64,000 bases of DNA from positions 54,746,001 to 54,810,000 of the forward strand of contig OZ360230.1 in the NCBI GenBank assembly GCA_977017645.1, written 5' to 3'. Below are positions 4,323 to 55,842 of this stretch, piece after piece. Source of the stretch: Torpedo marmorata. Lineage: Eukaryota. Made by a program: the position numbers and the translations under genes. The notes beneath the pieces were generated by a model, which saw nothing but the letters and a program-made list of their open reading frames with translations, was not told the DNA's origin and did not search any database. Each line of letters opens with the position of its first letter. Within the stretch, counting starts at the first letter, position 1.

Positions 4323-5038
4323 TTTGAAAATATTGATATATACCGTATATTTTGGCGTATAAGTTGAGTCCTGAAACCCTCAAAAATCTCTCAAAAAACA
4401 GGGGTCGACTTATACGCCAGATATACTTTTGAGGCCTTAAAATCAGCTCAAAAACTACTCCACGCCGATTCGGCGTATAAGTCGACCCTTGAAAACCCGA
4501 TTCGGCGTATAAGTCGACCCATGAAAAACCGATTCGGCGTATAGGTCGACCCTGGAAGCGCCTCCCCACTGCCGGTGCCGCTGCTCCCCGACACCTCCCC
4601 ACCGCCGGGCGCCGCCATAAACCACCCAGACATTCTACAATTGTAGAGCCCAAGGTCCCCGCTCCTGCCCGGGAGAATGAGGTCGCCGCTCCTGCCCGGG
4701 AGAACGAGGTCGCCGCTCCTGCCCGGGAGAACGAGTCCCCGCACCTGCTCGGGAGAACGAGGTCGCCACACCTGCTCGGGAGAATGACGTCGCCGCTCCT
4801 GCCCGGGAGAACGAGTCGCCACACCTGCTCGGGAGCCGACACTTACCGTGGTTCCTGCACTGAGCACACTTGGGCAGCGAGGTGACTTCTTCGATGCGGA
4901 CAGCACCGCACCCGATGTGGAGAATGGAGTCGCCCATCGCCGACTCTGGCTGCAGCTGAAGCTGAAGACTTGGACCCAGCTCCGTTTGGCATCTTCCCGG
5001 CCAGAAGCAAAGGTTTTTTTTACTGTTTTTTTTACTTA

Positions 5039-6313
5039 CCGTATATTTCGGCGTATAAGTCGACCCTTGAAACCCTCAAAAATGTCTCAAAAAACGGGGG
5101 TCGACTTATACGCCAGATATACTTTTGAGACCTTAAAATCAGCTCAAAATCGAGATCACGCCGATTCGGCGTATAAGTCGACCCCTGAAAACACGATTCG
5201 GCGTATAAGTCGATCCCTGAAAACACAATTCGGCGTATAGGTCGATCTTGGAAGCGCCTCCCCACCGCCGGCGCCGCCGCTCCACGACACCTCCCCTCCG
5301 CCGGGCGCCGCCATAAACCACCCAGACATTCTACAATTGTAGAGCCCGAGGTCCCCGCTCCTACCCGGTAGAACGAGTTCCCCGCTCCTGCCTGGGAGAA
5401 CGAGCTCCCCGCTCCTTCCCGGGAGAACGAGCTCCCCGCTCCTGCTCGGGAGAACGAGCTCCCCGCTCCTTCTCGGGAGAACGAGCTCCCCGCTCCTACC
5501 CGGGAGAAAGACGTCCCCGCTCCTACCCGGGAGAACGAGCTCCCCGCTACTGCCTGGGAGAACGACGTCCCCGCTCCTGCTCGGGAGAAAGACGTCCCCG
5601 CTCCTGCTCGGGAGAAAGACGTCCCCGCTCCTGCTCGGGAGAACGAGCTCCCCGCTCCTGCTCGGGAGAACGAGCTCCCCGCTGCTGCTCGGGAGAACGA
5701 GCTCTCCGCTCCTTCTCGGGAGAACGAGCTCCCCGCTCCTTCTCGGGAGAACGAGCTCCCCGCTCCTACCCGGGAGAAAGACGTCCCCGCTCCTAGTCGG
5801 GAGAATGAGCTCCCCGCTCCTGCTTGGGAGAAAGACGTCCCCGCTCCTGCTCGGGAGAAAGACGTCCCCGCTCCTGCTCGGGAGAACGAGCTCCCCGCTC
5901 CTGCTCGGGAGAACGAGCTCCCCGCTCCTGCCTGGGAGAACGAGCTCCCCGCTCCTGCTCGGGAGAACGAGCTCCCCGCTACTGCTCAGGAGAAAGACGT
6001 CGCCGCACCTGCATTTTCCCGGCCAGAAGCAAAGGTTTTTTTTACTGTTTTTTTTAACTTACTGGTACTTGCTTAATTTACAGCTTTGTTACTTGGCGAT
6101 TGGGATGTTGTAACAAATTTTGGGTTGTTGCTGGGAGGCCCGGACAGCCTGAAAATTGGGGGTCGACTTATACGCCGGTCAATGGCAACATCTCAGGCAT
6201 CGCGATTTTTGGGGGTCGACTTATACGCCGGATATACCATAAAACCATTAAAATGAGGCTGAAAAAGGGGGATCGACTTATCTGCCGGTCGACTTATACG
6301 CCGAAATATACGG
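5039..6313. mobile_element. TcMar-Tc2-like MITE (inner copy, same family)
   Basis: Perfect 27-bp TIR CCGTATATTTCGGCGTATAAGTCGACC; TA at 5037-5038 and 6314-6315. Confidence 0.9.
5350..6005. repeat. 27-bp GC-rich minisatellite (about 24 units) inside the MITE
   Basis: Unit CTCCCCGCTCCTGCTCGGGAGAACGAG; a shorter array of about 7 units lies at 4655-4835. Confidence 0.95.
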
Positions 6314-28950: not shown

Positions 28951-29390
28951 GAAGATAAGGTCGAGATCGATGATAGAGAGCTCGAAGAAATTGGATGAAG
29001 AAATGATAATAAATGTTGTGTAAAATCTGTTGGGGGGGTGGACTTTTTGTCTTCTCCGTGCCTAGTCACAGATCACCTTAGTGGCGAGGGCCACTTCCCG
29101 AACAATGGAGAGGGGTAATACTGGTAATTAGGCCAGTATTGAATATAGTGGGGTTTTTAGTTTTTTTCTTTTTTTGTATCTTTTTTTTTTTCTTTTTTTT
29201 TCCTCTAAGGAGATGTCAGATAGATTACAATTGTGGAAGGGGGTGCCGGTGGATCTGATGGAGAGAGAGTTAGTAAATATTAAATGGTGGATAGTAAAGT
29301 AATAAATGTAGTAAGTATCAATATAAATGGGCTAAATAATCTGATTAAAAGGAAGAAAACTTTAGCATATATTAAAAAGTTAAAGGTAGA

Positions 29391-30012
29391 TGTAAGAGCC
29401 GTAGGCTCGTTTAACTTACTGTTGTTGCGGCGCTCCGATGTCTAGTCGGGCCTTGGAGCGCTCGCGTTGTTCACCAGGCCGTCCTCGGAGCGCTCCGAGG
29501 CTACGTCGGGCCTTGGAGCGCTTGCGTTGTTCTGTGGGCCGTCGTCGGCCCGTTCTTTGATATGCGCATGCGCGGGAGTGCCGACGGGCGCATGCGCAGT
29601 ATGGAGTGACGTCATTGTGCGCGTGGGAGGCTGGGAGTTGTAGTATGCGCGGGGTAGGATGCACAGAGCCATTAGAGAGAGAGAGAAGGAAAGGAAAAGA
29701 TGTATGGAGGGTGAGTCTGGTCTCCACATCTTTATTGACCGTTTTATACCGTTTTATAACTTTTACATCGTTCTACAGTGTTTTCATATCGTTTTGGAAT
29801 TGTTTAAAGAACTATTTAAAGGAACTCATCATACATCGTTTACAAGAACTGTTTATATTAAAGTCATTGAAGATTACTGCAAGTTATGTGTGAAAATAAA
29901 GGTTTTTGAACATATTGGACTTTGTTAGTAAATTAATTAAAACGCGTCAAAAGCAAGGACCACACTTAGCCTCCAGGTGACTATTGGTGGATCGAAGTCA
30001 CCGTTACTTATA
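29391..30012 (+). repeat. BEL 5' LTR (622 bp, TG...TATA)
   Basis: Identical to 34654-35275 except A29663 versus G34926. Confidence 0.95.
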
Positions 30013-30398: not shown

Positions 30399-33300
30399 TT
30401 GGGGACTGTTGTTTGGCTAGTGTTGTGTATGCTTGAAGGAAAGAGGAACAAGACGAGTAAAATGGCCGCAGCAGCCACTGATACAGCAGCTACTGATTTA
30501 TCAGCAGCTGACGCAGCAACCGCTGATGTTGCTGTTGAGGACCAACGTATTGAAGACATGAAGGTTGCGGAAATTAAAGAAGAATTGAAGCGACTGAAAA
30601 GGGACATAAGTGGAAATAAAAAGGTTCTTATTGAAAGATTGAAGCAGGCAAAGGATGAAGAGGCAGCTTTATTATTTGAACAAGAAGATAACTTGGAAAT
30701 GGCTGAAATTGTGTCAACAAATGATGAACAATTTGAATTGGATAAAGAGGTAAGTATGAAGACAACATATGAACTGCAGGACGAAATACAAGCAAGTGAC
30801 AGTGTCTCAAATGCTGAAAGCAGGAGAAGCAAAAGAAGTTCTGGTTCGAGCTCCAGAGTTTCTCGTACTTCAAGTTCTGCATCGTCACGTACAAGGATTG
30901 ATGTTAAATTGGCCGCTCTCATTGCACAACAAAAAACGCTTAAGGATAAATATATTTTGGAAGAAGAGGAGGAGCAGCTAAGACAAAAGGAGGAGCAGCT
31001 AAAGGAGCAGCTAAGACAAAAGGAGGAGCAGCTAAAGGAGCAGCTAAGACAAAAGGAGGAGCAGCTAAAGGAGCAGCTAAGACAAAAGGAGGAGCAGCTA
31101 AAGGAGCAGCTAAGACAAGAGGAGGAGCAGCTAAGACAAAATGAGAAACAGCTAAAGGAGCAGCTAAGACAAGAGAAGGAGCAGCTAAGGAAGAGAAAAG
31201 AACAGCATGAGCTGGAAGCAAACATTGCTATTGCCAAGGCAGAAAAGAAAGCAATAGAAGGCTCAATGGTATCTGGTGCTAGCAGTAAATTATCTAAATT
31301 ATCTGATAATAAAAGGTCATATTTAAAAAAGGAGTCACAGGAAAAGAAACCAACCAAAAGGATAGATATTTTAGAACCAAGGATACAAAACTTACATATA
31401 CAAAGACAAACCTTTCAAGAGCATTTTGGTATCGAGTCACATGTACCAATGGTAACATCTGAAAGCAAAGCTGCAGATTGGGTTCGGTCGAACGAAGTAG
31501 CTTCTTTGTTATGTGAGTCAAGCATCAGAAATATGGAAGAAACTACACCAGTAAGGTTTCCAGATACATTGCATGCAACAAGAAACAGTGAGCAGAGCAA
31601 TGTATTGTTATCCAAGGAAAGACAAAATGAAATTGCTGCATCATTGTTTCAGTTACAGTCTCTCTCTTCTTTACCCAAGAAAGAGATACAAACTTTTGAT
31701 GGTGATCCACTTCAATATCAATCATTTATGAGATCTTTCAAACGCAATATTGAAGATAAATGCCAAGATCGTGATGAATGTCTTTATTATTTGGAAATGT
31801 TTACAAAGGGACATCCAAAAGAACTGGTTAAAAGTTGTAAACAAATGTCTTCAGGAAGAGGATTAGACAAAGCTAAGGATTTATTGGAACAATATTTTGG
31901 CAACAAGCATCGAATTGCTTTAGCTTATATGGATAAAGCTCTTAAATGGACATCAATAAAACAAAATGATGTAAGGGCTTTGCAAGAATATACTTTGTTT
32001 TTAAGAGGATGTTGTAATGCTATGGAAGAAATCGATGGTATTCGTGAGCTTGATGTGCATAGTAATATGCGAATCATTTTAGAAAAATTACCTTACAAGG
32101 TATGGGATAGATGGAGAAATTTGGCTTGTGATTTACAAGTAAATTATGGTCGAAGAATTACTTTAAAGGATTTGGTAAATTTTCTTGAACGACAAGTGTA
32201 TGTTGAAACAGATCCACTATATGGAAATACCAGAGATAATTCAATGGGCAAAGATGTAAGAAAGTCTAATTCACAGTCTAGTCCGAAAGTGAAAAGGAGT
32301 ACTTTTGCTACTAATGTGCAAGTTATAAGTAAAGAAAAGGACAAAATAAATAAGGAAAAGGAAAGTTTGCCTAATGAAAAGAGTTGTTTGTTCTGTAAAG
32401 GTGGACATGCTTTGGAAATGTGTTTACAATTGGAAAGGAAGGAACATAAAGAAAGGATCGCTTTCTTAAAGGAAAATGGAATATGTTTTAGCTGTCTGTG
32501 TAAAGGGCACATCAGTAAAAACTGCGAGAAGCGAATTAATTGTAAAATATGCAATTTGAAACATCCTAGAATTTTGCATGTCCATAACAGAAACAAGGAA
32601 TTGGAAAAGGAGCAAACAGAAACAAAGGAAACAACAGAAAATAATGTTATTACCTCGGTTCAGACAAGTGGTCTTACTGGGGCCGGGGTGAATAACTGCA
32701 AACTTTCAATAGTGCCTGTACAAGTTAAGGCCAAGAAAGGGGATGCAATAGTAAAAACATATGCATTTCTAGACCCAGGTAGCACTGCATCTTTTTGCAC
32801 GGAAGGACTAATGAATAAACTTAATATTCAAGGAAGAAAATCAAGAATTATGTTAAAAACCATGGGACAAGAAAAGGTTGTTGAAACTAACATTGTTTCA
32901 GGCTTAGAGGTTGCTGGATTGGATGACAAAAAATTTTGTGATCTTCCAAGTGTATATACTCAGAAGACTATGCCTGTGAACGAAGGAAATATTCCTCATC
33001 AAAGTGATATCCATCATTTAGCTTATCTGTGGAAGGTTTATTTACCTGAAATTAATTCTGAGATAGAAATGCTGATTGGTTCAGATGTGCCAAAGGTTTT
33101 GGTACCAAAAGAAGTAATAGAAAGTAAAAGGAATGGACCTTACGCTATTAGAACCATACTTGGTTGGGCAATCAATGGACCAATGGAAAGAAATAATGAT
33201 ATTGCTCAGGAACAGGTAGCGATAAATGTTAATAAAATTTCAGTTGAGAAATTTGAAGAGTTAAGAGAAGAGCAAAAAACCGTGAATAAGAAAATCACTT

Positions 33301-34319
33301 ATGAAGAAAAGAAAACAGATCAATGTAAAAATAAATCAGTGGTATTTAAAACAACATTAAAGAAATTAATTTCGTCAGAAATGGATGAAAGTGAAGTATT
33401 AGAAGATGTTGCAAATAATACTGTTGATCATTCATGTGTAATTGAATCAAATACAGGAATAAAACAAGTGACTGAAAACAAATCTGAATGTAGATTTTGT
33501 AGTTCAGAGATTACAATTGACAAAGCTAATGAAGAATTATTGCAATGTGATGTAAAAATGGAGAACACAGAAAATTGTGCTGATGGAATAAAGAATAATG
33601 ATTCAGAGAACAAAATGTTGAAAGGAGAATTGGAAATATTAAATAAGCAAGAAAACAGTAAACAGAAAGATTTAATTGTAAGTAAAACTCGCAAAGTCAG
33701 AAAGCGGAAGAAAAGAATAACTGCTGAAGAAATGAATACAGTTATTGAGGAAAGAGATTCAGCATTATCAAAATGTAAAAGGTTGGAGGAAGAGATTAAT
33801 GTTTTGAAAGAGATCAAGTTATTGGTTAATAACACAAAACAGTTAACTTTTAAAACCAATCAAGAATGTAAATTGAATGTTCAACAATTAACAATGCAGA
33901 AAGAATGTGAAATTGCATTGCAGAAATGTAACAAGCAAGATGAAGAAATTAAAAAATTTCAAGTATGCCGCAACAGGATTGACAATGGAACTATCAATGT
34001 ATCGCATGATATTTTGACTTCAGATCAAATTATTAATTTCTCGGAAGGAGCTGAGACTGAATTTAAAGTTGCGAAATTGGATTTAGAATTGCAGGAAAGA
34101 GCAATAGAAACCAGAGTGGTTAAACAGACCTGTTTAAAATCGAAAGGATCAAATAAATATTCAAATTCTAATTCTGAGAGTTTAAATTCTTCACATGAGA
34201 AGTGGAATACTGAAGAAAGGAATAAAGTGAAACGACATGCTGAAGAAGTGCCTCATGTTAAATTCAAAAGGAAAACTGTATCTATTTTGTCTGAAGAAGA
34301 TTTGAGGTTTACTGATTGA
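30399..34319 (+). CDS. SAP domain - BEL Gag (three Cys/His knuckles) - aspartic protease - coiled-coil fusion with a MIPOL1-like segment; likely ATG at 30462
   Basis: 1306-aa open frame: SAP DMKVAEIKEELKRL..SGNKKVLIERL; Gag IQTFDGDPLQYQSF; CLFCKGGH..C, CFSCLCKGH..C, CKIC..HPRILH; protease AFLDPGS..LIGSD..ILGWAING; no RT, RNase H or integrase motifs. Confidence 0.9.
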   Translation: MGTVVWLVLCMLEGKRNKTSKMAAAATDTAATDLSAADAATADVAVEDQRIEDMKVAEIKEELKRLKRDISGNKKVLIERLKQAKDEEAALLFEQEDNLEMAEIVSTNDEQFELDKEVSMKTTYELQDEIQASDSVSNAESRRSKRSSGSSSRVSRTSSSASSRTRIDVKLAALIAQQKTLKDKYILEEEEEQLRQKEEQLKEQLRQKEEQLKEQLRQKEEQLKEQLRQKEEQLKEQLRQEEEQLRQNEKQLKEQLRQEKEQLRKRKEQHELEANIAIAKAEKKAIEGSMVSGASSKLSKLSDNKRSYLKKESQEKKPTKRIDILEPRIQNLHIQRQTFQEHFGIESHVPMVTSESKAADWVRSNEVASLLCESSIRNMEETTPVRFPDTLHATRNSEQSNVLLSKERQNEIAASLFQLQSLSSLPKKEIQTFDGDPLQYQSFMRSFKRNIEDKCQDRDECLYYLEMFTKGHPKELVKSCKQMSSGRGLDKAKDLLEQYFGNKHRIALAYMDKALKWTSIKQNDVRALQEYTLFLRGCCNAMEEIDGIRELDVHSNMRIILEKLPYKVWDRWRNLACDLQVNYGRRITLKDLVNFLERQVYVETDPLYGNTRDNSMGKDVRKSNSQSSPKVKRSTFATNVQVISKEKDKINKEKESLPNEKSCLFCKGGHALEMCLQLERKEHKERIAFLKENGICFSCLCKGHISKNCEKRINCKICNLKHPRILHVHNRNKELEKEQTETKETTENNVITSVQTSGLTGAGVNNCKLSIVPVQVKAKKGDAIVKTYAFLDPGSTASFCTEGLMNKLNIQGRKSRIMLKTMGQEKVVETNIVSGLEVAGLDDKKFCDLPSVYTQKTMPVNEGNIPHQSDIHHLAYLWKVYLPEINSEIEMLIGSDVPKVLVPKEVIESKRNGPYAIRTILGWAINGPMERNNDIAQEQVAINVNKISVEKFEELREEQKTVNKKITYEEKKTDQCKNKSVVFKTTLKKLISSEMDESEVLEDVANNTVDHSCVIESNTGIKQVTENKSECRFCSSEITIDKANEELLQCDVKMENTENCADGIKNNDSENKMLKGELEILNKQENSKQKDLIVSKTRKVRKRKKRITAEEMNTVIEERDSALSKCKRLEEEINVLKEIKLLVNNTKQLTFKTNQECKLNVQQLTMQKECEIALQKCNKQDEEIKKFQVCRNRIDNGTINVSHDILTSDQIINFSEGAETEFKVAKLDLELQERAIETRVVKQTCLKSKGSNKYSNSNSESLNSSHEKWNTEERNKVKRHAEEVPHVKFKRKTVSILSEEDLRFTD
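30968..31190 (+). repeat. 33-bp in-frame tandem repeat encoding (EQLRQKEEQLK)n
   Basis: GAGCAGCTAAGACAAAAGGAGGAGCAGCTAAAG repeated about 6 times. Confidence 0.95.
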
Positions 34320-34354: not shown

Positions 34355-34445
34355 AAGAGACATTGTTATTATTATGGATAATTCAACTTCAAGAAACTCC
34401 TGGTTATTTGGAGAAATTATTGAGACTTTTCGAGACAGAGGAACT
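34355..34445 (+). pseudogene. Remnant of the BEL integrase C-terminal tail (DUF5641-like)
   Basis: Translates RDIVIIMDNSTSRNSWLFGEIIETFRDRG; copy 2 reads GDIVISMDDSTPRNSWLLGKIIETIQDKRGLVRQVRIKT. Confidence 0.75.
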
Positions 34446-34653
34446 TTTATAAATGTGAACTGACTTTATTTGTTGTTGTATATTTCACAGGTTACAGACT
34501 TTTGATGAATCAGAGTTATGGTAAACTCTAGATTTATGAAGAAGGAAGCAAGAAGATTTGTATTGTTTTGAATATTATGGTTATTGTTATTTATAATTTA
34601 TAGTGTAATTATTATTCAAGACATTACGTCTAATTATAATAATTAGGGGCCGG

Positions 34654-35275
34654 TGTAAGAGCCGTAGGCTCGTTTAACTTACTGTTGTTGCGGCGCTCCG
34701 ATGTCTAGTCGGGCCTTGGAGCGCTCGCGTTGTTCACCAGGCCGTCCTCGGAGCGCTCCGAGGCTACGTCGGGCCTTGGAGCGCTTGCGTTGTTCTGTGG
34801 GCCGTCGTCGGCCCGTTCTTTGATATGCGCATGCGCGGGAGTGCCGACGGGCGCATGCGCAGTATGGAGTGACGTCATTGTGCGCGTGGGAGGCTGGGAG
34901 TTGTAGTATGCGCGGGGTAGGATGCGCAGAGCCATTAGAGAGAGAGAGAAGGAAAGGAAAAGATGTATGGAGGGTGAGTCTGGTCTCCACATCTTTATTG
35001 ACCGTTTTATACCGTTTTATAACTTTTACATCGTTCTACAGTGTTTTCATATCGTTTTGGAATTGTTTAAAGAACTATTTAAAGGAACTCATCATACATC
35101 GTTTACAAGAACTGTTTATATTAAAGTCATTGAAGATTACTGCAAGTTATGTGTGAAAATAAAGGTTTTTGAACATATTGGACTTTGTTAGTAAATTAAT
35201 TAAAACGCGTCAAAAGCAAGGACCACACTTAGCCTCCAGGTGACTATTGGTGGATCGAAGTCACCGTTACTTATA
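34654..35275 (+). repeat. BEL 3' LTR
   Basis: Direct repeat of 29391-30012. Confidence 0.95.
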
Positions 35276-35640
35276 GTAGATATAGCTTTTTTTTTACAAG
35301 AGATATACTTGACAGATAATTTACATAATAAATATAATTTCTTTTTGAAAATATGGAGCCCATATATAAAAACGGTTGGTTTAAGGATTTGAAGTTCTCT
35401 GGATATCGGATCTGACTGGCGAACCTATCTTCCACAATAAAATTAGCTTATAGTTGTTCTTTTTTAGATTGACATTCTCCTTACTTTATCTTTTTCTTTC
35501 TTTCTTTCTTTCTTTTCTATTTTAGTAGATTAGTAGGGGTGGGAGGGTTAGGGAGGGGAGGGAGGGAGGGGGGTGAAAATGTATCACATGTATTTTGATA
35601 AGTTTGCATTTTAGACTTTGTATTGTGTGATTTAAAAAGT

Positions 35641-46000: not shown

Positions 46001-47569
46001 TGTTTTCAATACATCTCTATGTTTTTTAGGTATAACTGTAATTATTGCATTTGAAAATGTTTCCGGTAGCGAATGAGTTTCCGTTATTTGTTTCAACACC
46101 TCCATATATGGAGGTATCAATAAATCCTTAAACTCCTTATAAATTTCTGATGGGAAACCATCCTCCCCTGGAGATTTTCCACTCGTTAGAGAACTAAGAA
46201 CATCATTAACTTCCCTCATCGAAAACGACAAATCTAAAAGTTCTTTACTTTGAGTATTTAATCTAGGTATCTTAATTTTAGATAGAAATTCATTAATTTT
46301 AGAATCATCTTTATCAGTTTGAGATTTATATAAATTTAAATAAAATTCCTTAATGGAATCATTTATTTCTCAAGGTTCATATGTTATTTTCTTTGAATTC
46401 TTTTTTATGGCATTTATAGTTCTAGAAGTTTGTTCTTTCTTTAATTGCCATGCCAACACTTTATGTGCTCTTTCTCTCAATTCATAATATCTTTGCTTAG
46501 TTCTTTCAATTAATTTTAACATTTTATATTTTTTTAACGTATTATAATGCAATTTATTTTCGATTAAGTTTTTCCTGATCTCTTTTTTTGCAAATCCTTC
46601 TCCAAAAATTCAATCTCCCTCTCCAAATTATCCACTTCCCGAACATATTCCTTCTTAACTTTTGCTGAATAACTTATTATTTGGCCTCTTAAATAAGCCT
46701 TTAAAGCTTCCCAAATAATAAATTTATTATCAATCGAGTTAGAATTCATCTGTAAAAATTCTTGAATTTCTCCTCTTATATAATTACAAAAATCCATTCT
46801 TTTTAATAAAGAGGAATTAAATCTCCACCTATACATAGTTTTTTCTTTTTCTGGAATTATACATGACATTAATAGAGGAAAGTGATCAGAAATTATTCTT
46901 GCTTTGTATTGTGCTTGAGTCACCCTATCTTCTACTTGTGAGGACAATAAAAACATATCTATTCTAGAGTATGAGTCATGCCTAAAAGAATAGAAAGAAT
47001 AATCTTTTTCTCTTGGATTCAACTTTCTCCAAATATCTATTAAATTTAAATCTTTCATCAAAATAAGAATTATTTTAGCAATTTTAGTTCTAATAATTGA
47101 TATCGATGTTTTATCCATTATTGGATCTAAACAACAATTAAAATCCCCACCAGTTAAAATATTATCATTTGCTTCTGACAAATACATAAAAGAATTTTGA
47201 ATAAATTGTTCATCTTCCATATTTGGTACATATATATTCATGAGTGTCCACATTTCTGAATATATCTGACAATGTATTAAAACATATCTACCTGCCACAT
47301 CTACAACCACAGATTGTATTTTAAAAGGTAACTTTTTATTAACTAATATAGCAACTCCTTTTGCTTTAGAATTAAATGAAGACGCAACCACATGACCAAC
47401 CCATTCTCTTTTCAACTTCTGATGTTCTATATCTGTCAAATGTGTCTCTTGTAAAAAAGCTGTGTCTACATTTAACTTTTTAATATATGCTAGTTTTCTT
47501 CCTTTTAATTGGATTATTTAGCCCAATTATATTAATACTTACTACATTTATTGATTTACTATCCGCCAT
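43020..47569 (-). pseudogene. L1 ORF2 (APE endonuclease, RT, C-terminal domain), frameshifted
   Basis: GGDFN, YSRIDMF, ISDH; KSPGEDGF, FRPISLLNVDYKI; TRQGCPLSPALF, LFADD; IKMNVFPRIQYLFQ. Confidence 0.92.
43295..44077 (+). mobile_element. Rex1/Babar (subfamily B) inserted in L1 ORF2
   Basis: ORF 43363-43911 nearly identical to the C-terminus of 15631-16584; (TTCTGA)n tail. Confidence 0.93.
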
Positions 47570-50031
47570 TTCTAGTTTTTAATAACTCTCTCCATCAGAT
47601 CCACCAGCACCCTCTTCCACATTTGTAATCTATTTGACATCTCCTTAGAAAAAAAAAGAAAAAGATAAAAAAGAAACAAAAGTCTTAGTTTTAATTCGAA
47701 CTTGACGCACAAGTCCCCTTTTGTCCTGAATAGTCTCAATAATTTTTCCAAGTAACCAGGAGTTTCTTGGAGTTGAATCGTCCATACTAATTACAATGTC
47801 TCCTCAAAGTTCTTTTATCTCCAGAATCTTTGAGTTAAAATGTCGAACAGTAAACCTCAAATCTTCCTCAGACAAAATAGATACAGTTTTTCTTTTGAAT
47901 TTAACACGAGGCACTTCTTCCGCATGTCGTTTCACTTTATTTCTTTCTTCAGTATTCCACTTCTCATGTGAAGAATTTTAAACTCTTAGAACTAAAATTT
48001 GAATATTTATCTGATCCTCTCGATTTTAATAAACGAGTCTCTTTCACCACTCTGGTTTCCATTGCCTTTTCCTGCAATTCCAAATCCAATTTTGCAACTT
48101 TCAATTCAGTCTCAGTTCCTCCCAAGAAATTAATAACTTGATCTGAAGTGAAAATATCATGTGATACTTTGGTACTTCTATTGTCAACCCTGCTGAGGTA
48201 AACTTGAAATTTTTGAATTTCTTCATCTTCCTTGTTACATTTCTGCAATGCAATATCACTTTCTTTCTGCATTGTTAATAGCTGAACATTCAATTTACAT
48301 TCTTGAATGTTTTTAAAGTCAACTGTTTGGTATTATTAACCAATAACTTGTTCTCTTTCAAAATATTAATCTCTTCCTCCAACCTTTTACATTTTGATAA
48401 TGCTGAATCTCTTTCCTCAATAACTGTATTCATTTCTTCAGCAGTTATTCTTTTCTTCTGCTTTCTGACTTTGCGAATTTTACTTACAATTAAATCTTTC
48501 TGTTTACTGTTTTCATGATTATCTAATATTTCCAATTCCCCTTTCAACATTTTGTTCTCTGAATTCAATTGCATTAAATTATCATTCACATTCTTCTTTA
48601 TTCCATCAGCACAATTTCCTGCGTTCTCCAGTTTTACATCACATTGTAACATTTCTTCATTGACTTTGTCTGTTGTAATCTCTGAACTACAAAATCTACA
48701 TTCTAATTTGTTCTCATTCACTTGTTTTATTCCTGTATCTGATTCAATTACACAGGAATAATCAATAATATATGCAACATCTTCTAATACTTCATTTTCA
48801 TTCATTTCTGATGAACATAATTCCTTCAATGTTGTTTTAAATACCTTTGATTTATTTTCACATTGATCTATTTTCTTTTCTTCAAAAGTGATTTTCTTAT
48901 TCACAGTCTTTTGCTATTCCCTTAACTCATCAATTTTCACAACCAAAATCCCATTAATATTTATCGCTAACTGTTCCTGAGCAATATCATTATTTCTTTC
49001 CAATGGTCCATTGATTGTCCAACCAAGCTTGGTTCTAACAGCGTAAGGACAATTCCTTCTATTCCGTATTACATCTAGTGGTTCCAAAACCTTTGGCACA
49101 TCTGAACCAATCAACATTTCTATTTCAAAATTAACTTCAGGTAGACAAACATTTTTCAGATAAGACCACCATTTAATATCATTTTGATGAGGAATGTTTC
49201 CTTCATGCACAGGCATAGTCTTCTGAGTATATAAACTTGGAAGATCACAAAATTTTTCGTCATATAATCCACCAACCTCTAAGCCTGAAACAATGCTAGT
49301 TTCAACAATCTTTTCTTGTCCCATGGTTTTCAACATAATTCTTGACCTTCTTCCTTGAATATTAAGTTTGTTCATTAGTCCTTCCGTGCAAAATGATGCA
49401 GTACTGCCTGGGTCGAGAAATGCATATGTATGTACTATTGCATCCCCTTTTTGGTCTTGATTTGTACAGGCACTATTGAAAGTTTGCAGTAATCCACACC
49501 GGCCCCGGTAAGACCACTTGTCTGAACCGAGGTTATAACATTGTTTTCGGTTGTTTCCTTTGTTTCTGTCTGCTCCTTTTCCAATTCCTTGTTTCTTTGA
49601 TGGATATGCAACATTCTCGGATGTTTCAACTTACATATGTTACAATTAATTCGCTTCTCGCAGTTTTTACTGATGTGCCTGATAGGCGTATCAATAACAA
49701 CTCGAAGACTGTGAGAGCGAGTGAATCATAGGCTTTTATTGGCTAAGAATGGAGCTGAGCTTCCTCCTCGATCAGGTCCGGACTGAAGGGGGATGGCCGA
49801 GATACAGTGGCCTTTATTCAGGTGAGGAAAGGGGAGGGATTACCTGGACACCCAAGGGAGGGGAGGGAGTAGCATCAGTCCGGCCCGCAGTACCTATACG
49901 TACCACCAATACAAGCACAGTGGTTTACCACATTCACCCCTCCTTTTTTTTTAAAAAGAGTCCAGCGGGGTGACGTGACCACTCCATGTACACAAAAAAA
50001 ATATATACATATATACATACAGACCCTCCTT

Positions 50032-51270
50032 TCACAGATCGAGGCGATCCGGCGGCCGAATTTTTCGCTGTGACCTGCGTAATGGCGGGTCGGGCTGTGG
50101 TGCTGGGGAAGATATGAGTGACTGGGGAGGTGGTAGGGTTGTCTGTGCCGTCGCCTCCTGCCTGGCCTCTCGGAACGACTGCGATGCCGTTGAGGGGGCG
50201 GGGTCTAGCACATCGGGTGGGGCGTTAGGAAGAGGTTGCTGCGTGTTCTGTGGTACGTGGACTTGCCCGTCGGAATGCCCAACTGGCGCCCCATCAGGCG
50301 CCAGGTCTCTGATGGAGACGGTGTCTTCTCGTCCATCCGGGAAGACCACGTACGCATACTGCGGGTTGGCGTGCGCCAACTGCACCCTCTGAACCGTCGG
50401 TTCATATTTGCTGCTCCGAAGGTGGTTCCGGAGCAGCACTGGTCCCGGGGACATCAGCCAGGCAGGAAGGGAGGTCCCGGTGGTCGATTTCCTAGGGAAA
50501 GAAAGAAATCGTTCATGAGGAGTTGCGTTGGTGGAAGTGCACAAAAGGGATCGGATAGAGTGGAGGGCTTCGGGGAGAACATCCTGCCAGCGGGAGACCG
50601 GCCAGCCCTTTGACTTAAGGGCTAGGAGCGCGGCCTTCCACACCGTGGCGTTCTCCCTTTCCACCTGACCGTTTCCTCGGGGGTTGTATGCTGTTGTCCT
50701 GCTAGTGGCGATGCCTCGGTCCTGCAGGTACCGGCGCAGCTCCTCACTCATAAAAGCTGCTCCCCGGTCGCTATGTATGTAGTTTGGGAACCCAAACAGC
50801 GTGAATACCTGGTGGAGAGCTTTTATGGTTGAGGTAACTGAGGTGTCGGGGCAGGGGATGGCAAAAGGGAACCGCGAGTACTCGTCAACAATGTTTAGGA
50901 AGTACACGTTGCGGTTTGTGGAGGGGAGGGGCCCCTTGAAGTCAATACTAAGACGTTCAAAGGGGCGTGTGGCTTTGATCAGCTGTGCCCTGTCCGGGCG
51001 GTAGAACTGAGGTTTGCACTCTGCGCAAACACGACAGTCTCTGGTCAAAGCCCTGACCTCTTCCAGGGAGTATGGCAGGTTCTGTGCCTTCACGAAGTGA
51101 AAAAGCCTGGTAACTCCTGGGTGACAGAGGAGGTCATGTAGGGCAGTTAATCGGTCGATCTGCGCGCTGGCGCACGATCCCCGGGATAGAGCGTCTGAGG
51201 GCTCATTGAGCTTCCCGGGCCGGTAGAGGATGTCGTAGTTGTAGGTGGAGAGTTCTATTCTCCACCTCAT
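50032..51270 (-). CDS. RNase H C-terminal tail plus integrase
   Basis: RWRIELSTYNYDILYRPGK..DALSR; H..CHPG..CRVC; SIDFKGPLP, VDEYSRFPFA, SDRG, GNGQVER. Confidence 0.9.
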   Translation of the reverse strand: MRWRIELSTYNYDILYRPGKLNEPSDALSRGSCASAQIDRLTALHDLLCHPGVTRLFHFVKAQNLPYSLEEVRALTRDCRVCAECKPQFYRPDRAQLIKATRPFERLSIDFKGPLPSTNRNVYFLNIVDEYSRFPFAIPCPDTSVTSTIKALHQVFTLFGFPNYIHSDRGAAFMSEELRRYLQDRGIATSRTTAYNPRGNGQVERENATVWKAALLALKSKGWPVSRWQDVLPEALHSIRSLLCTSTNATPHERFLSFPRKSTTGTSLPAWLMSPGPVLLRNHLRSSKYEPTVQRVQLAHANPQYAYVVFPDGREDTVSIRDLAPDGAPVGHSDGQVHVPQNTQQPLPNAPPDVLDPAPSTASQSFREARQEATAQTTLPPPQSLISSPAPQPDPPLRRSQRKIRPPDRLDL

Positions 51271-51309
51271 GATCTTATCGTTTTTGATCTTCTTCTTCTT
51301 CTTCCACCT

Positions 51310-51625
51310 CCGACAAAGATGGCCGCCCCCGCGGCTCGCACGTGTCGCTGCTGTAAAATGGCGGCGGTAGGATCGCTGGAAGTACAGATGCGGGAGGTGC
51401 AGGAAGTGCCAGCATCAAAGATGGCCGCCTCCGCGGCTCACACGAGGCCGGTTCCGGAAGTGCCAGCATCAAAGATGGCCGCCCCGCGGTTTACACGAGG
51501 CCGGTTCCGGAAGTGCCAGCGTCAAAGATGGCCGCCCCCGCGGCTCGCACGAGGTCGGCGCTGGAAGCTGCTGCAGGTTCAGGTAGGATGGCTGCCCCCG
51601 CAGCTCGCACGCGGCGCTACTCGGG
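51310..51625. repeat. GC-rich tandem repeat of about 55-60 bp at the Gag 3' end
   Basis: GATGGCCGCCCCCGCGGCTCGCACG unit about 5 times; encodes CEPRGRPS motifs. Confidence 0.8.
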
Positions 51626-52437
51626 CCCGGGCGCGACTTGGAGCGGCAGGCCTTCACGTAATGGCCTTTCCTGCCGCATCCGGAACAATTCGCGTCGCGG
51701 GCCGGGCAGCGCTTCCGCGGGTGTTTTTCAAGCCCGCAGAAGTAACACTTCTCGGGCTCGCGGCTGGCGGCAGCGGCGGTGAGGATCGCGGTCGCGATGG
51801 GGTCGGCACAGATGGCGGCGGTCGCGATCGGGTCGGCACGGATGGCGGCGGCGGTCAGTTCGTTCACCGGGCTAGGGGATGGGGCCGACCACGCTGCGGG
51901 CTGGGCCTGCATGGCACCAGCGTTCTGCTGCGCGGTCTCCAGCGTGTTGACCATCGCTACCGCCCCCGCAAAGTCCAGGTCGGCGTGCTCTAATAGTCTC
52001 TGGCGCACGTCTACCGACCTGAGCCCCATGATGAACGCATCTCGCTCCACCACTCGCAAGTGTTCCTCCGCAGTCTGGGCTTTACAGTCGCACGCCCGTG
52101 CAAGTGACTGGATGGCCCTGACATATTCCACAGTCGATTCCCCGGTTCGCTGCCTCCGTGAGTAGAGCCGGTATCGCGCGTAGACCGCGTTGACGGGCGC
52201 TAGGTAGATTCCTTTCAGGGCCCCGATGGCTCCCGTGTAGGTTCGGTGTTCTCTTACCGTCGTGTACACCCGATGGCTCACCCTGGAGGTCAGGACTCTC
52301 AGTTGTTCCTCTTCACTTTCGGCTTTCACTGTGAACATGAACGATTCGAGGCAGGCCAGCCAGTGTTCAAAGATGTTACCAGCCTCGGGGGCTAGGTGGT
52401 CGAGGTCTAGGATAGCTGGTCGTAGTGCTCCTTCCAT
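51469..52437 (-). CDS. Gypsy Gag with two CCHC knuckles
   Basis: ARYRLYSRRQ..GES, RDAFIMGL, CYFCGLEKHPRKRC, CSGCGRKGHYVKAC. Confidence 0.88.
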   Translation of the reverse strand: MEGALRPAILDLDHLAPEAGNIFEHWLACLESFMFTVKAESEEEQLRVLTSRVSHRVYTTVREHRTYTGAIGALKGIYLAPVNAVYARYRLYSRRQRTGESTVEYVRAIQSLARACDCKAQTAEEHLRVVERDAFIMGLRSVDVRQRLLEHADLDFAGAVAMVNTLETAQQNAGAMQAQPAAWSAPSPSPVNELTAAAIRADPIATAAICADPIATAILTAAAASREPEKCYFCGLEKHPRKRCPARDANCSGCGRKGHYVKACRSKSRPGPSSAACELRGQPSYLNLQQLPAPTSCEPRGRPSLTLALPEPASCKPRGGHL

Positions 52438-54280
52438 CAGAAGTTCTTTAGCCAATAAAATTGATAGGCCTATCAATAACAACTCGAAGACTGTGAGAGC
52501 GAGTGAATCATAGGCTTTTATTGGCTAAGAATGGAGCTGAGCTTCCTCCTCGATCAGGTCCGGACTGAAGGGGGATGGCCGAGATACAGTGGCCTTTATT
52601 CAGGTGAGGAAAGGGGAGGGATTACCTGGACACCCAAGGGAGGGGAGGGAGTAGCATCAGTCCGGCCCGCAGTACCTATACGTACCACCAATACAAGCAC
52701 AGTGGTTTACCACAGTGCCCTTTACACAGACAGCTAAAACATATTCCATTTTCCTTTAAGAAAGCAATCTTCTCATTATGTTCCTTCTTTTCCAACCGTA
52801 AACACATTTCCAAAGCATGTCCACCTTTACAGAACAAACAGCTCTTCTCATCAGGCAAACTTTCCTTTTCCTTATTTACTTTGTCCTTTTCTTTATTTAT
52901 AATTGACACATTAGTAGCAAAAGTACTCCTTTTCAATTTCAGACGAGTCTGTGAGTTGGACCTCCTTACATCTTTGTTCCCCATTGAATTGTCTCTAATA
53001 TTTCCATATATTGGATCTGTTTCAATGTACACCTGTCGTTCAAGAAAATTTACCAAGTCCTTTAAGGTAGCTCTTCGACTGTAATTTTCTTGTAAATCAC
53101 AAGCCAACTTTCTCCATCTATCCCACAACTTGTAAGGTAATTTTTCTAAGATGATTTGCATACTACCAGGCGCTTCAAGCACACGAATATTATCGATATC
53201 TTCCATGGCATTACAACATCCTCTTAAAAATAGAGTATACTCTTGTAGAGCCTTTACATCATTCTGTTTTATTGATGTCCATTTAAGAGCTTTATCCATA
53301 TAAGCAAAAGCAATTCGATGCTTGTTGCCAAAATGTTGTTCTAATAAAGCCTTAGCTCTGTCTAATCCTCTTTCTGAAGACATATGTTGACAACTCTTTA
53401 CAAGTTCTTTTGGATGTCGCTTTGTGAACATTTCCAAATAATAAAGACATTCATCACGATCTTGGCATTTATTTTCAATATTGCGTTTGAAAGATCTCAT
53501 AAATGATTGGTACTGAAGTGGATCACCATCAAAAGTTTGTATCTCTTTCTTGGGCAAAGAAGAGAGAGACTGTAACTGAATCAATGATGCAGCAATTTCA
53601 TTTTGTCTTTCCTTGTATGACAATACATTGCTCTGTTCACCACCTCTTGTTACAGGTAATGTATCTGGAAACCTCACTGGTGTAGTTTCTTCCATATTTT
53701 TGATGCTTGACTCAAATAACAAGGGAGCTGCATCGTTTGACCGAACCCAAGCCACAGCTTTGTCTTCAGATGTTACCATTGGTACATGTGACTTAATACC
53801 AATATGCTCTTGAAGGTTTTGTCCTTGTATTTGCAAGTCTTGTACCCCTGGTGCTAAAATATCTATCCTTTTGGTTGGTTTATTTTCCTGTGACTCTTTT
53901 TTGAAATATGACCTTTTATTATCAGACATTTTGGATAATTTACTTTAAGCACCAGATACCATTGAGCCTTCTATTGCTTTCTTTCTGGCTCTGCAATAGC
54001 AATATCTGTTTTTAGCTCATGCTGCTCTTTTTTCTTTCTTAGCTGCTCTTGTCTCTTCCTTAGCTGTTGTCTCTGCCTTAGCTGTTCCTCCTGTTGGCTC
54101 TGCTTTAGCTGTTCCTCCTGTTCTCTTAGTTCCTCCTCCTGTTCTTCTAAAACATGTTTATCCTTAAGAGAATTTTGTCATGCAATAAGAGCGGCCAAGT
54201 CAACTTCAATCTTTGTATGTGACGATGCAGAACTTGAAGTACAAGAAACTCTGGAGCTCAAACCAGAACTTCGTTTGCTT

Positions 54281-54385
54281 TGATGAAGGGCTCAAGCTGA
54301 AACATCGGTTATGTATTTCTACCTTTGCTACATAAAAGACACTGTTTGACCTGCTGAGTTTCTCCAGCATTTGTGTTTTTTACTT
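54281..54385 (+). mobile_element. Short Penelope pLTR inserted in BEL gag
   Basis: TGATGAAGGGCTCAAGCTGAAAC...; flanking repeat TT(C/T)GTTTGCTT. Confidence 0.85.
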
Positions 54386-55265
54386 TGTTTGCTTCTCCTG
54401 CTTTCAGCATTTGAGACACTGTCACTTGCTTGTATTTCGTCCTGCAGGTCATATGTTAGCTTCTTACTTACCTCTTTCTCCAACTCAAATTGTACATCCT
54501 TTGCATCTTCACCCTCTTCATCCTCTTCATTTTCTTCATCCTCTTCATTTTCTTCATCCTCTTCATTTGGTGACACAATTTCAGCCATTTCATCTGACGA
54601 AGCTGCCTGTTCTTCCTTTGCCAGCTTCAATATTGCGATGAGAACCTTTTTATTTCCACTTATATCTAGTTCCAGTCGCTTCAATTCTTTTTTAATATCC
54701 ACAATCTTCATGTCTTTAATACGTTGGCCCTTAACAGCAACATCAGCGGTTGCTGCGTCAGCTGCTGATACATCAGTGGCTTCTACATCAGAGGCTGCTG
54801 CGGCCATTTTACTCGTCTTGTTCCACTGTCCTTCAAGCATACACAACACTAGCCAAATCAACAGTCCCCAATGGACTAGCGGCAGCAAATCCAATCTGTG
54901 TTCTAATTTGCCAAAGATACACAGAAGGAGTCCACAGACTTATGCCTACCACTTCAGAACACTGTAATGTGCTGCTATTCACAAACGAGTTTAAACCACA
55001 ACATCTGTCAATAATATCGCTGATTTTCCAGAAATGGTTTCTCCAACGTATTTATAGTACACTTTAATATAAGATTTGAAGCTTTAAATCCCTCTCTGGC
55101 TGTTACACATGGCAGATGGATGTGGATTACAAACTGCCCCCAACTCGAGGCATCTCCAAGATGGCCACCATTTTATTTTAAATATCAGTCCAAAGCACAG
55201 AGAGATTATTCTATCTTCTTTCCTTCAATTTTCTGTTCCAAACAACCACTTTCATTGACTAATTA

Positions 55266-55842
55266 TATAGTGACTTCAATCCAACAAATAGTGACTTGGA
55301 AGCTAGGTGAGATACTTGTTCTTGACGCATTTCAATTAATTTACTAACGTCCAATATGTTCAAAAAACTTTATTTACACACGTGACTTGCAGCAATCTTC
55401 AATGACTTAAATATCTTCTTTAAATTAAATATAAACAATTCTTGATAACGATGTTTAATATATTCCTTTAAACTATTCTTTTGACTGTATTTAAACGTTC
55501 AATGTAACGGCTTCAAACAAATTCAAACGATCAATGAAACGGTCAATGAAAGATTTGGCGATCTCACTCACCCTCCTCCATCGCCATTTTTTTCTATTCT
55601 TTTTATTCCGATTCGCGCATGCTCAATGCGCATATTCCACCGCGCACACTCCACCGCGCACACTCCACCGCGCACACTGCCGTCAATTCCCAACTGCACA
55701 TGCGCCTGTTGGCACTCCCGCGCATGCGCAGAGTACTAAATAGACCTAGCACAGCCTACCATACACCGCGACTCCTCCGTAACCCGCCGAGACCATCGGA
55801 GCGCCGCGACCAAGGTAAGTAATTAAGCATATAGCTCTTACA
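55266..55842 (-). repeat. BEL copy 2 5' LTR
   Basis: Starts TGTAAGAGC on the minus strand; shares blocks with the copy 1 LTR. Confidence 0.88.

Follow-up and report, generated by a model that had tools for sequence, protein, structure and literature searches.

The window analysed here, a stretch of 64,000 nucleotides of Torpedo marmorata DNA, holds a BEL/Pao LTR retrotransposon of 5.9 kb with a single frame, in which pieces of host genes occupy the place of the reverse transcriptase (RT), RNase H and integrase core. By sequence comparison, three host genes, BRCA1, MIPOL1 and Elongin A, contributed the intronless pieces of this cassette (intron loss was observed for BRCA1 and MIPOL1). Its MIPOL1 part contains an exact back-splice junction, which most likely goes back to a circular RNA of 780 nt, copied by template switching. 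The family that carries the cassette is young and abundant, and selection seems to act on its open frame, not on the host functions of the pieces.

Structure of the element

29386..29390, + strand: target-site duplication GTAGA, left copy, from the sequence
29391..30012, + strand: 5' LTR, 622 bp, TG...TA ends, one mismatch to the 3' LTR
30429..34319, + strand: single ORF of 1,296 aa, with SAP, Gag, Cys/His motifs, protease, BRCA1, MIPOL1 and Elongin A stubs in this order
30549..30650, + strand: SAP domain, close to the Gag N-terminus (Pfam PF02037, E 3.2e-9)
32481..33275, + strand: Cys/His motifs, protease and linker, 95% identical to L138, a full-length gag-pol BEL
34429..34653, + strand: BEL 3' end, with the final integrase codons, untranslated region and purine-rich tract, 91.5% to L139 of the full-length copy
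34654..35275, + strand: 3' LTR, 622 bp; the LTR pair differs at 1 of 622 bases
35276..35280, + strand: target-site duplication GTAGA, right copy, from the sequence

BEL/Pao elements (Belpaoviridae) have LTRs, a 5-bp target duplication and one ORF, which encodes a Gag with Cys/His motifs and a protease. The window copy resembles them in its LTRs, its 5-bp duplication and its single ORF, and shares 92-95% identity with a copy bearing Peptidase_A17, but it departs from autonomous BEL/Pao elements in having host sequence instead of RT, RNase H and integrase core. When it is aligned with a full-length copy, BEL sequence breaks off at 33275 and is back by 34429; the purine-rich tract was seen by reading the sequence directly. 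Judged on these sequence features, the element is a non-autonomous BEL/Pao derivative, and would work like an LTR-mediated retrocopy.

The ORF measures 1,296 aa when counted from its ATG and 1,306 aa if the in-frame TTG at 30399 is taken as its start. The latter start fits the preliminary description, which reported a 1306-aa ORF devoid of RT, RNase H and integrase core, and a Pfam search of the 1,296-aa ORF indeed found no RT, RNase H (PF05380) or integrase. The aspartyl protease gave a weak Pfam match (E 0.047), under the cut-off. ORF length varies among young copies of the family, around 1,250-1,370 aa.

The SAP region was considered as a fourth captured host gene, on an apparent likeness to SLTM/SAFB that was not borne out, and was rejected: comparisons gave no specific host donor. 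Its best match among solved structures was the SAP of MKL1 (E 3e-5), and Atlas scores were 0.80 or lower. Further along the N-terminal region of Gag, a 33-bp tandem repeat (11 aa, Glu/Gln/Lys-rich) spans 30964-31193. LTRs usually have TG...CA termini; TA rather than CA terminates those of the window copy (30005-30012) and of several young copies (among L118-L125).

A second, damaged copy lies further along the window.

47722..55730, - strand: copy 2, internal part 79-88% identical, by alignment

It is broken by a stop near 48915, by 1-nt gaps and by an inserted element, and a search for its 3' LTR found none. DUF1759 is at the Pfam cut-off in copy 2 and without a match in copy 1. Both window copies adjoin the same part of a sequence that we take to be L1-like, near the start of its ORF2 (29172-29390 and 47492-47684); the insertion target of the window copy is presumably that ORF2 start, its peptide having been recognised by eye.

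Three host genes in the cassette

33270..33667, + strand: BRCA1-derived piece, two spliced host exons with in-frame deletions (skate BRCA1, 44% aa, E 1.6e-25)
33668..33973, + strand: MIPOL1 piece 1, the 3' part of exon Ee, Ef and Eg, 79-90% nt to host exons
33974..34117, + strand: MIPOL1 piece 2, the start of Ea and part of Eb with an 81-nt deletion between, by alignment to host exons
34110..34316, + strand: Elongin A stubs, about aa 420-470 and 508-525 of electric-ray P0062 (pairwise E 7e-10)

The preliminary description held that a MIPOL1-like host segment had been captured, and quoted a peptide that we located in the ORF at 33660-33968. The MIPOL1 segment is real, but the account was incomplete: BRCA1, Elongin A and a second MIPOL1 piece are also present. 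The segment matched coelacanth MIPOL1 (E 1.6e-19, 48% identity), the sole match among 229 candidates, and scored 113 bits to shark MIPOL1 versus 33.1 for the best of 500 shuffles. In the Atlas, MIPOL1 came top at 0.95, yet unrelated coiled-coil clusters reached 0.92-0.95, and this result is weak on its own. A chance coiled-coil likeness was ruled out by the shuffles together with the nucleotide identity to host exons. Pfam assigned no family to the segment, nor to shark MIPOL1 itself, so that the blank is uninformative. The alignment to MIPOL1, described earlier as gap-free, contains a one-codon gap, and the corresponding block of copy 2, on the minus strand as stated, lies at about 48497-48193 and is interrupted near 48300 by a gap of 1 nt.

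A search with the 359-aa tail of the ORF returned 35 proteins, all partial matches. Nine were looked up: eight are MIPOL1 by name or unnamed MIPOL1-like proteins, and the ninth, skate BRCA1, matches directly upstream of the MIPOL1 block. A genome search with MIPOL1 then revealed an older subfamily, with an identity of 51-67% in almost every row. Every old copy fetched carries BRCA1 and then MIPOL1 (20/20), followed by Elongin A in 19 of the 20, and the window copy has kept eroded forms of all three. Four BRCA1 exons are matched by old copies at 91-100% nt with three introns skipped (host exons on G000:C61), and five MIPOL1 exons at 94-98% (host gene on G000:C40); for MIPOL1 piece 1, the old copies L031 and L036 reach 95-98% nt. 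Colinear MIPOL1 introns are absent on either side of the back-splice, and the segment crosses host introns of 29 kb and 78 kb; therefore a spliced RNA was captured. Neither RING nor BRCT was found in the BRCA1-derived piece (33270..33667). Elongin A in old copies shows 83-90% aa identity, with matches to PDB 8oev_M (E 1e-54) and to Pfam Elongin_A (E 1.4e-14). Its closest named relative is that of the electric ray (92%), the host locus was located on G000:C41, near 39.0 Mb, and the capture is colinear at the protein level. The Elongin A region that old copies have and the window copy lacks is presumably the BC-box region.

Of 12 loci sampled among those found with the pol linker, nine run on into RT-type sequence and not into BRCA1, and so reveal where the original switch took place. 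The young BEL-BRCA1 joint has a CAGCAA-like match of about 6 nt, and no clear microhomology was found at this joint in old copies. Two nt of microhomology are found at the BRCA1-MIPOL1 switch point, and at the MIPOL1-Elongin A joint about 10-30 nt between the pieces are assigned to neither.

Could the pieces have been L1-made processed pseudogenes first, which BEL took up later from DNA or by read-through? Elements that appear L1-like are common in the window. However, every piece is an internal coding fragment in sense orientation, neither poly(A) nor a duplication flanks the pieces in L090, the old copies remain near the host exons (MIPOL1 dS versus host 0.06) and the fusions are in frame, which makes this origin very improbable.

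Two variants concern Elongin A. In the variant old copy L102 (5376-5597), a piece corresponding to Elongin A aa 95-168 (77%) sits in frame between BEL and a shorter BRCA1 piece, and may reflect either another switch to Elongin A RNA or a recombinant origin. At G000:C25:175318116-175318244, an Elongin A match (70%, one stop) just beyond the usual captured end may be a longer capture or a retrocopy.

The MIPOL1 back-splice junction and its template

33973..33974, + strand: back-splice junction, end of Eg to first base of the upstream exon Ea, by host exon alignment
48192..48193, - strand: the same junction in copy 2, by host exon alignment

Host MIPOL1 exons run in the order Ea to Eh, whereas the element shows, in this order, Ee (3' part only), Ef, Eg, Ea, Eb and Ec (start only). 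In 20/20 old, 30/30 young and 2/2 window copies, Eg ends directly before the first base of Ea; these 52 copies were selected by score, not sampled at random, and their common origin makes them one event. Over the 40 bases after the junction, Ea matches 36-39 in old copies and 25-30 in young and window copies, versus 7-11 for Eh. All seven exons Ea-Eg have AG/GT borders and together they total 780 nt, a multiple of 3. A pair of shark isoforms, differing by one residue, marks the same acceptor as that of Ea.

No MIPOL1 exon outside Ea-Eg was found in L031 and L036, where the only MIPOL1 sequence is that of Ee to Eg, then of Ea, Eb and the beginning of Ec; the copying stopped short of a complete turn. 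The next linear MIPOL1 exon gave one single match in the genome, and each of Ea, Eb, Ef and Eg occurs only once with flanking introns in the 400 kb host locus. The exact junction, the lack of any outside exon, the copying of less than one turn and the lack of a duplicate block in the locus make a circular RNA the simplest template. The earlier proposal that a host mRNA fragment was captured by template switching thus holds for a spliced host RNA, although the MIPOL1 template was probably circular and not an ordinary mRNA. MIPOL1 circRNAs are listed in mouse (PMC9888537) and in human (PMC8783515), without exons in the portions of these sources at hand; our search for literature on circMIPOL1 found none.

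An identical splice junction would arise if the same three-gene capture had used a linear MIPOL1 RNA with scrambled exons, produced by an ancestral tandem duplication of Ea-Eg or by trans-splicing, and the available part of Dong et al. (PMC4897178) allows for other routes to non-colinear junctions. This is quite unlikely, in view of the single intron-flanked set of Ea, Eb, Ef and Eg in the host locus, of captured exons that all fall within Ea-Eg and of the MIPOL1 circRNAs listed, exons not given, in the two mammals. A jump of the reverse transcriptase between two sites of the linear MIPOL1 mRNA is also conceivable: the enzyme evidently switched template several times, and the Eg and Ea sites share 3 nt of microhomology (AG|C) in the linear mRNA. 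Nevertheless, among backward junctions with at least 3 nt of microhomology, exon borders are hit by only 3 of 7,238 in-frame ones (9 of 19,079 when all frames are counted), and such a chance hit is extremely improbable. A circular RNA remains the preferred template.

The proposed circle (G000:C40:64385712-64591881) would consist of 780 nt of coding exons with matching phases, and would give an endless frame, if translated. In L104 (5836-6945), a 405-bp unit across the back-splice junction forms tandem repeats that are 100% identical, and may be a recent duplication or an assembly error.

Family history, likely helper and abundance

LTR pairs are 4.8-11.9% apart in seven old copies and 0-3 bases apart in eight young ones, and all 150 scored matches were identical over 103 aa. 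Amplification with the element, as claimed earlier, is borne out by first-look candidates numbering 32,698 and 38,741, figures that do not equal copy numbers. Four cassette-bearing copies lay within the 520 kb fetched around host genes, from which we estimate about 48,000 copies in the genome (Poisson range roughly 13,000-120,000). Four cassette-bearing copies sit inside introns of host MIPOL1 itself (G000:C40:64340035-64499835). No run recorded as RNA was listed as containing the stretch. Contigs of four sequence runs, which bear three organism labels and one of which was only guessed to be RNA, cover the element and cassette, with depth in 30, 30, 29 and 27 of 30 bins. A chimeric protein was sought in public protein sets, and none was present among 5,469 candidates of 712-2,268 aa.

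PF05380 matches lay in frames longer than 2,000 aa in 11 of 150 scored. In one such long-frame copy, of which 2.1 kb were sampled, identity to the window copy reaches 95% for Gag-protease and 92% for the 3' end plus LTR, versus 76-80% identity to two old copies. A helper search seeded by the RNase H of an old copy gave no frame above 853 aa among the 150 scored of 6,963 candidates. A full-length gag-pol BEL is the likely helper of the cassette family, which it would mobilise. The young-to-old synonymous distance is 0.54-0.81 in Gag/protease and 0.24-0.39 in the cassette. This lower distance in the cassette, together with the pattern of identity to the helper, suggests a transfer of the cassette to the backbone of the present helper.

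Selection on the cassette

As the preliminary description had proposed, dN/dS was computed across copies, by a method that takes no account of strong A+T drift and with an alignment of exon Ea that is spurious past about 67 nt. The value for the window cassette against host exons was 0.90 (0.63-1.29), with 0.83 for BRCA1 and 0.97 for MIPOL1, and those for Gag/protease against five old copies were 0.28-0.50. The GC content falls from 37% to 29%.

The frame was analysed, as were the deletions, with trimmed Ea and B4. All 279 aligned host codons share the frame of the ORF, in agreement with the fusion to Gag-protease described earlier as in frame, and they contain no stop, versus a mean of 10.1 in a neutral simulation (P(0) 5e-5). 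All seven shared deletions, whose size agrees in comparisons with two or more of three old copies, are multiples of three (24, 24, 120, 81, 195, 3 and 3 nt); two further deletions measure 285 and 111 nt against L095 and have other sizes against L090 and L093. The position of the stop codon is shared by 29 of the 30 young copies. It appears to matter that translation runs to near the 3' LTR, probably because this protects the RNA from decay, as a long untranslated tail on an RNA can cause decay.

The cassette dN/dS between the two window copies is 0.44-0.62, with intervals spanning 1, and that of old versus young MIPOL1 is 0.53 (0.31-0.93) in one of five comparisons; given these values, some amino-acid constraint on the cassette may exist. 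The main rival of selection on the frame alone is that the tail of host origin functions as a protein module (a spacer for Gag assembly, coiled-coil or charged, a competitor of the helper, or a decoy for host factors), and that the frame is conserved for a protein function under fast or adaptive change. It would explain why the frame stays intact through every junction and deletion up to a shared stop codon, and accords with the low values within the young clade and with the conservation of MIPOL1 exon Ee, the best-conserved piece of the cassette (90% nt). The near-neutral values against the host argue otherwise, as does the deletion of about half of the cassette in the window copy, the best-conserved Elongin A region included, and we hold a working module to be rather unlikely.

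Proposed mechanism

We consider it probable that the element is a non-autonomous BEL/Pao derivative which arose by capture of three RNAs, a circular MIPOL1 RNA among them, is copied by a helper, and is selected for its frame. In the ancestral element, the reverse transcriptase would have left the element RNA just past the protease linker, copied three co-packaged host RNAs and rejoined the element near the integrase end. A MIPOL1 circular RNA (Ea-Eg) would have been copied once across its back-splice junction. The chimera would have retained its LTRs and Gag-protease, and a full-length BEL relative would copy it in trans. Later, the Gag-protease and 3' end of that relative would have been acquired and about half of the cassette lost, with amplification to an estimated tens of thousands of copies. 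Selection would keep a frame unbroken almost to the 3' LTR and not the host functions of the pieces; the open frame may keep the RNA translated, stable and available for packaging, a last step that might hold or fail about equally.

A bolder extension is that circRNAs enter LTR particles and are copied there by template switching, and that the translated tail of the Gag-protease-BRCA1-MIPOL1-Elongin A chimera outcompetes the helper. We find it speculative and improbable. If true, it would supply the missing route to circRNA-derived pseudogenes, and a host-derived tail would drive one of the largest repeat families of the genome.

Comparison with known systems

Tan et al. 2016 (PMC5131818), in its accessible main text, describes LTR-mediated retrocopies in animals, among them a two-gene case in the Pao element BATUMI and a four-gene 'Super' retrocopy. 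Those retrocopies show short microhomologies, sometimes combine several genes and often keep the parental frame. The present element is like them in carrying partial, intronless host RNA in a discontinuous LTR element, and microhomology at its own switch points varies from joint to joint. Their cases are young, occupy few loci and have colinear exons, and the term 'circ' is absent from that main text; here, in contrast, a back-splice junction is present, the host pieces are fused to Gag-protease, both old and young subfamilies exist and candidates number in the tens of thousands.

CircRNA-derived pseudogenes were first described by Dong et al. 2016 (PMC4897178), with 33 circRFWD2 copies in mouse and LTR-enriched flanks; the portion of that paper at hand calls the mechanism mysterious and reports the flanking enrichment alone. 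A non-colinear exon junction in genomic DNA is common to their cases and ours, but ours lies inside a complete LTR element, between template-switch points and in an open frame.

In maize Bs1, according to the part available of a review (PMC13317346), an LTR retrotransposon contains a chimeric ORF built from segments of three host genes, which is reported to be transcribed, translated and possibly useful to the host. The two elements are alike in the three host genes of their chimeric ORF, and ours differs in being a vertebrate BEL/Pao, a probable parasite of a helper, with a back-spliced piece and near-neutral decay of its cassette.

Multi-gene capture by LTR elements and genomic copies of circRNAs were already known; the novelty lies in the back-splice junction, in the scale and in what seems to be selection on the frame alone. 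Within the accessible literature, our search found no prior report of the family, or of a back-splice junction within the ORF of an LTR element; the supplements of Tan et al. and Dong et al. may hold cases. A back-splice junction between switch points in an LTR element makes the packaging of circRNA into particles a testable route, and the family would be an example of a non-autonomous element in which selection favours an open frame and not the particular sequence that is read in it. One genome offers the old, young and helper lineages for comparison. In this animal, fragments that resemble BRCA1, MIPOL1 and Elongin A, in their tens of thousands, would disturb annotation, the mapping of reads and the calling of circRNAs, and could feed small RNAs against the three host genes.

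Other repeats in the window

49680..52714, - strand: unrelated LTR element inside copy 2, with 253-bp identical repeats and an integrase core

This inserted element is young. Elsewhere in the window, a 27-bp tandem array occupies 5207-6127, and a shorter block lies at 4619-4847.
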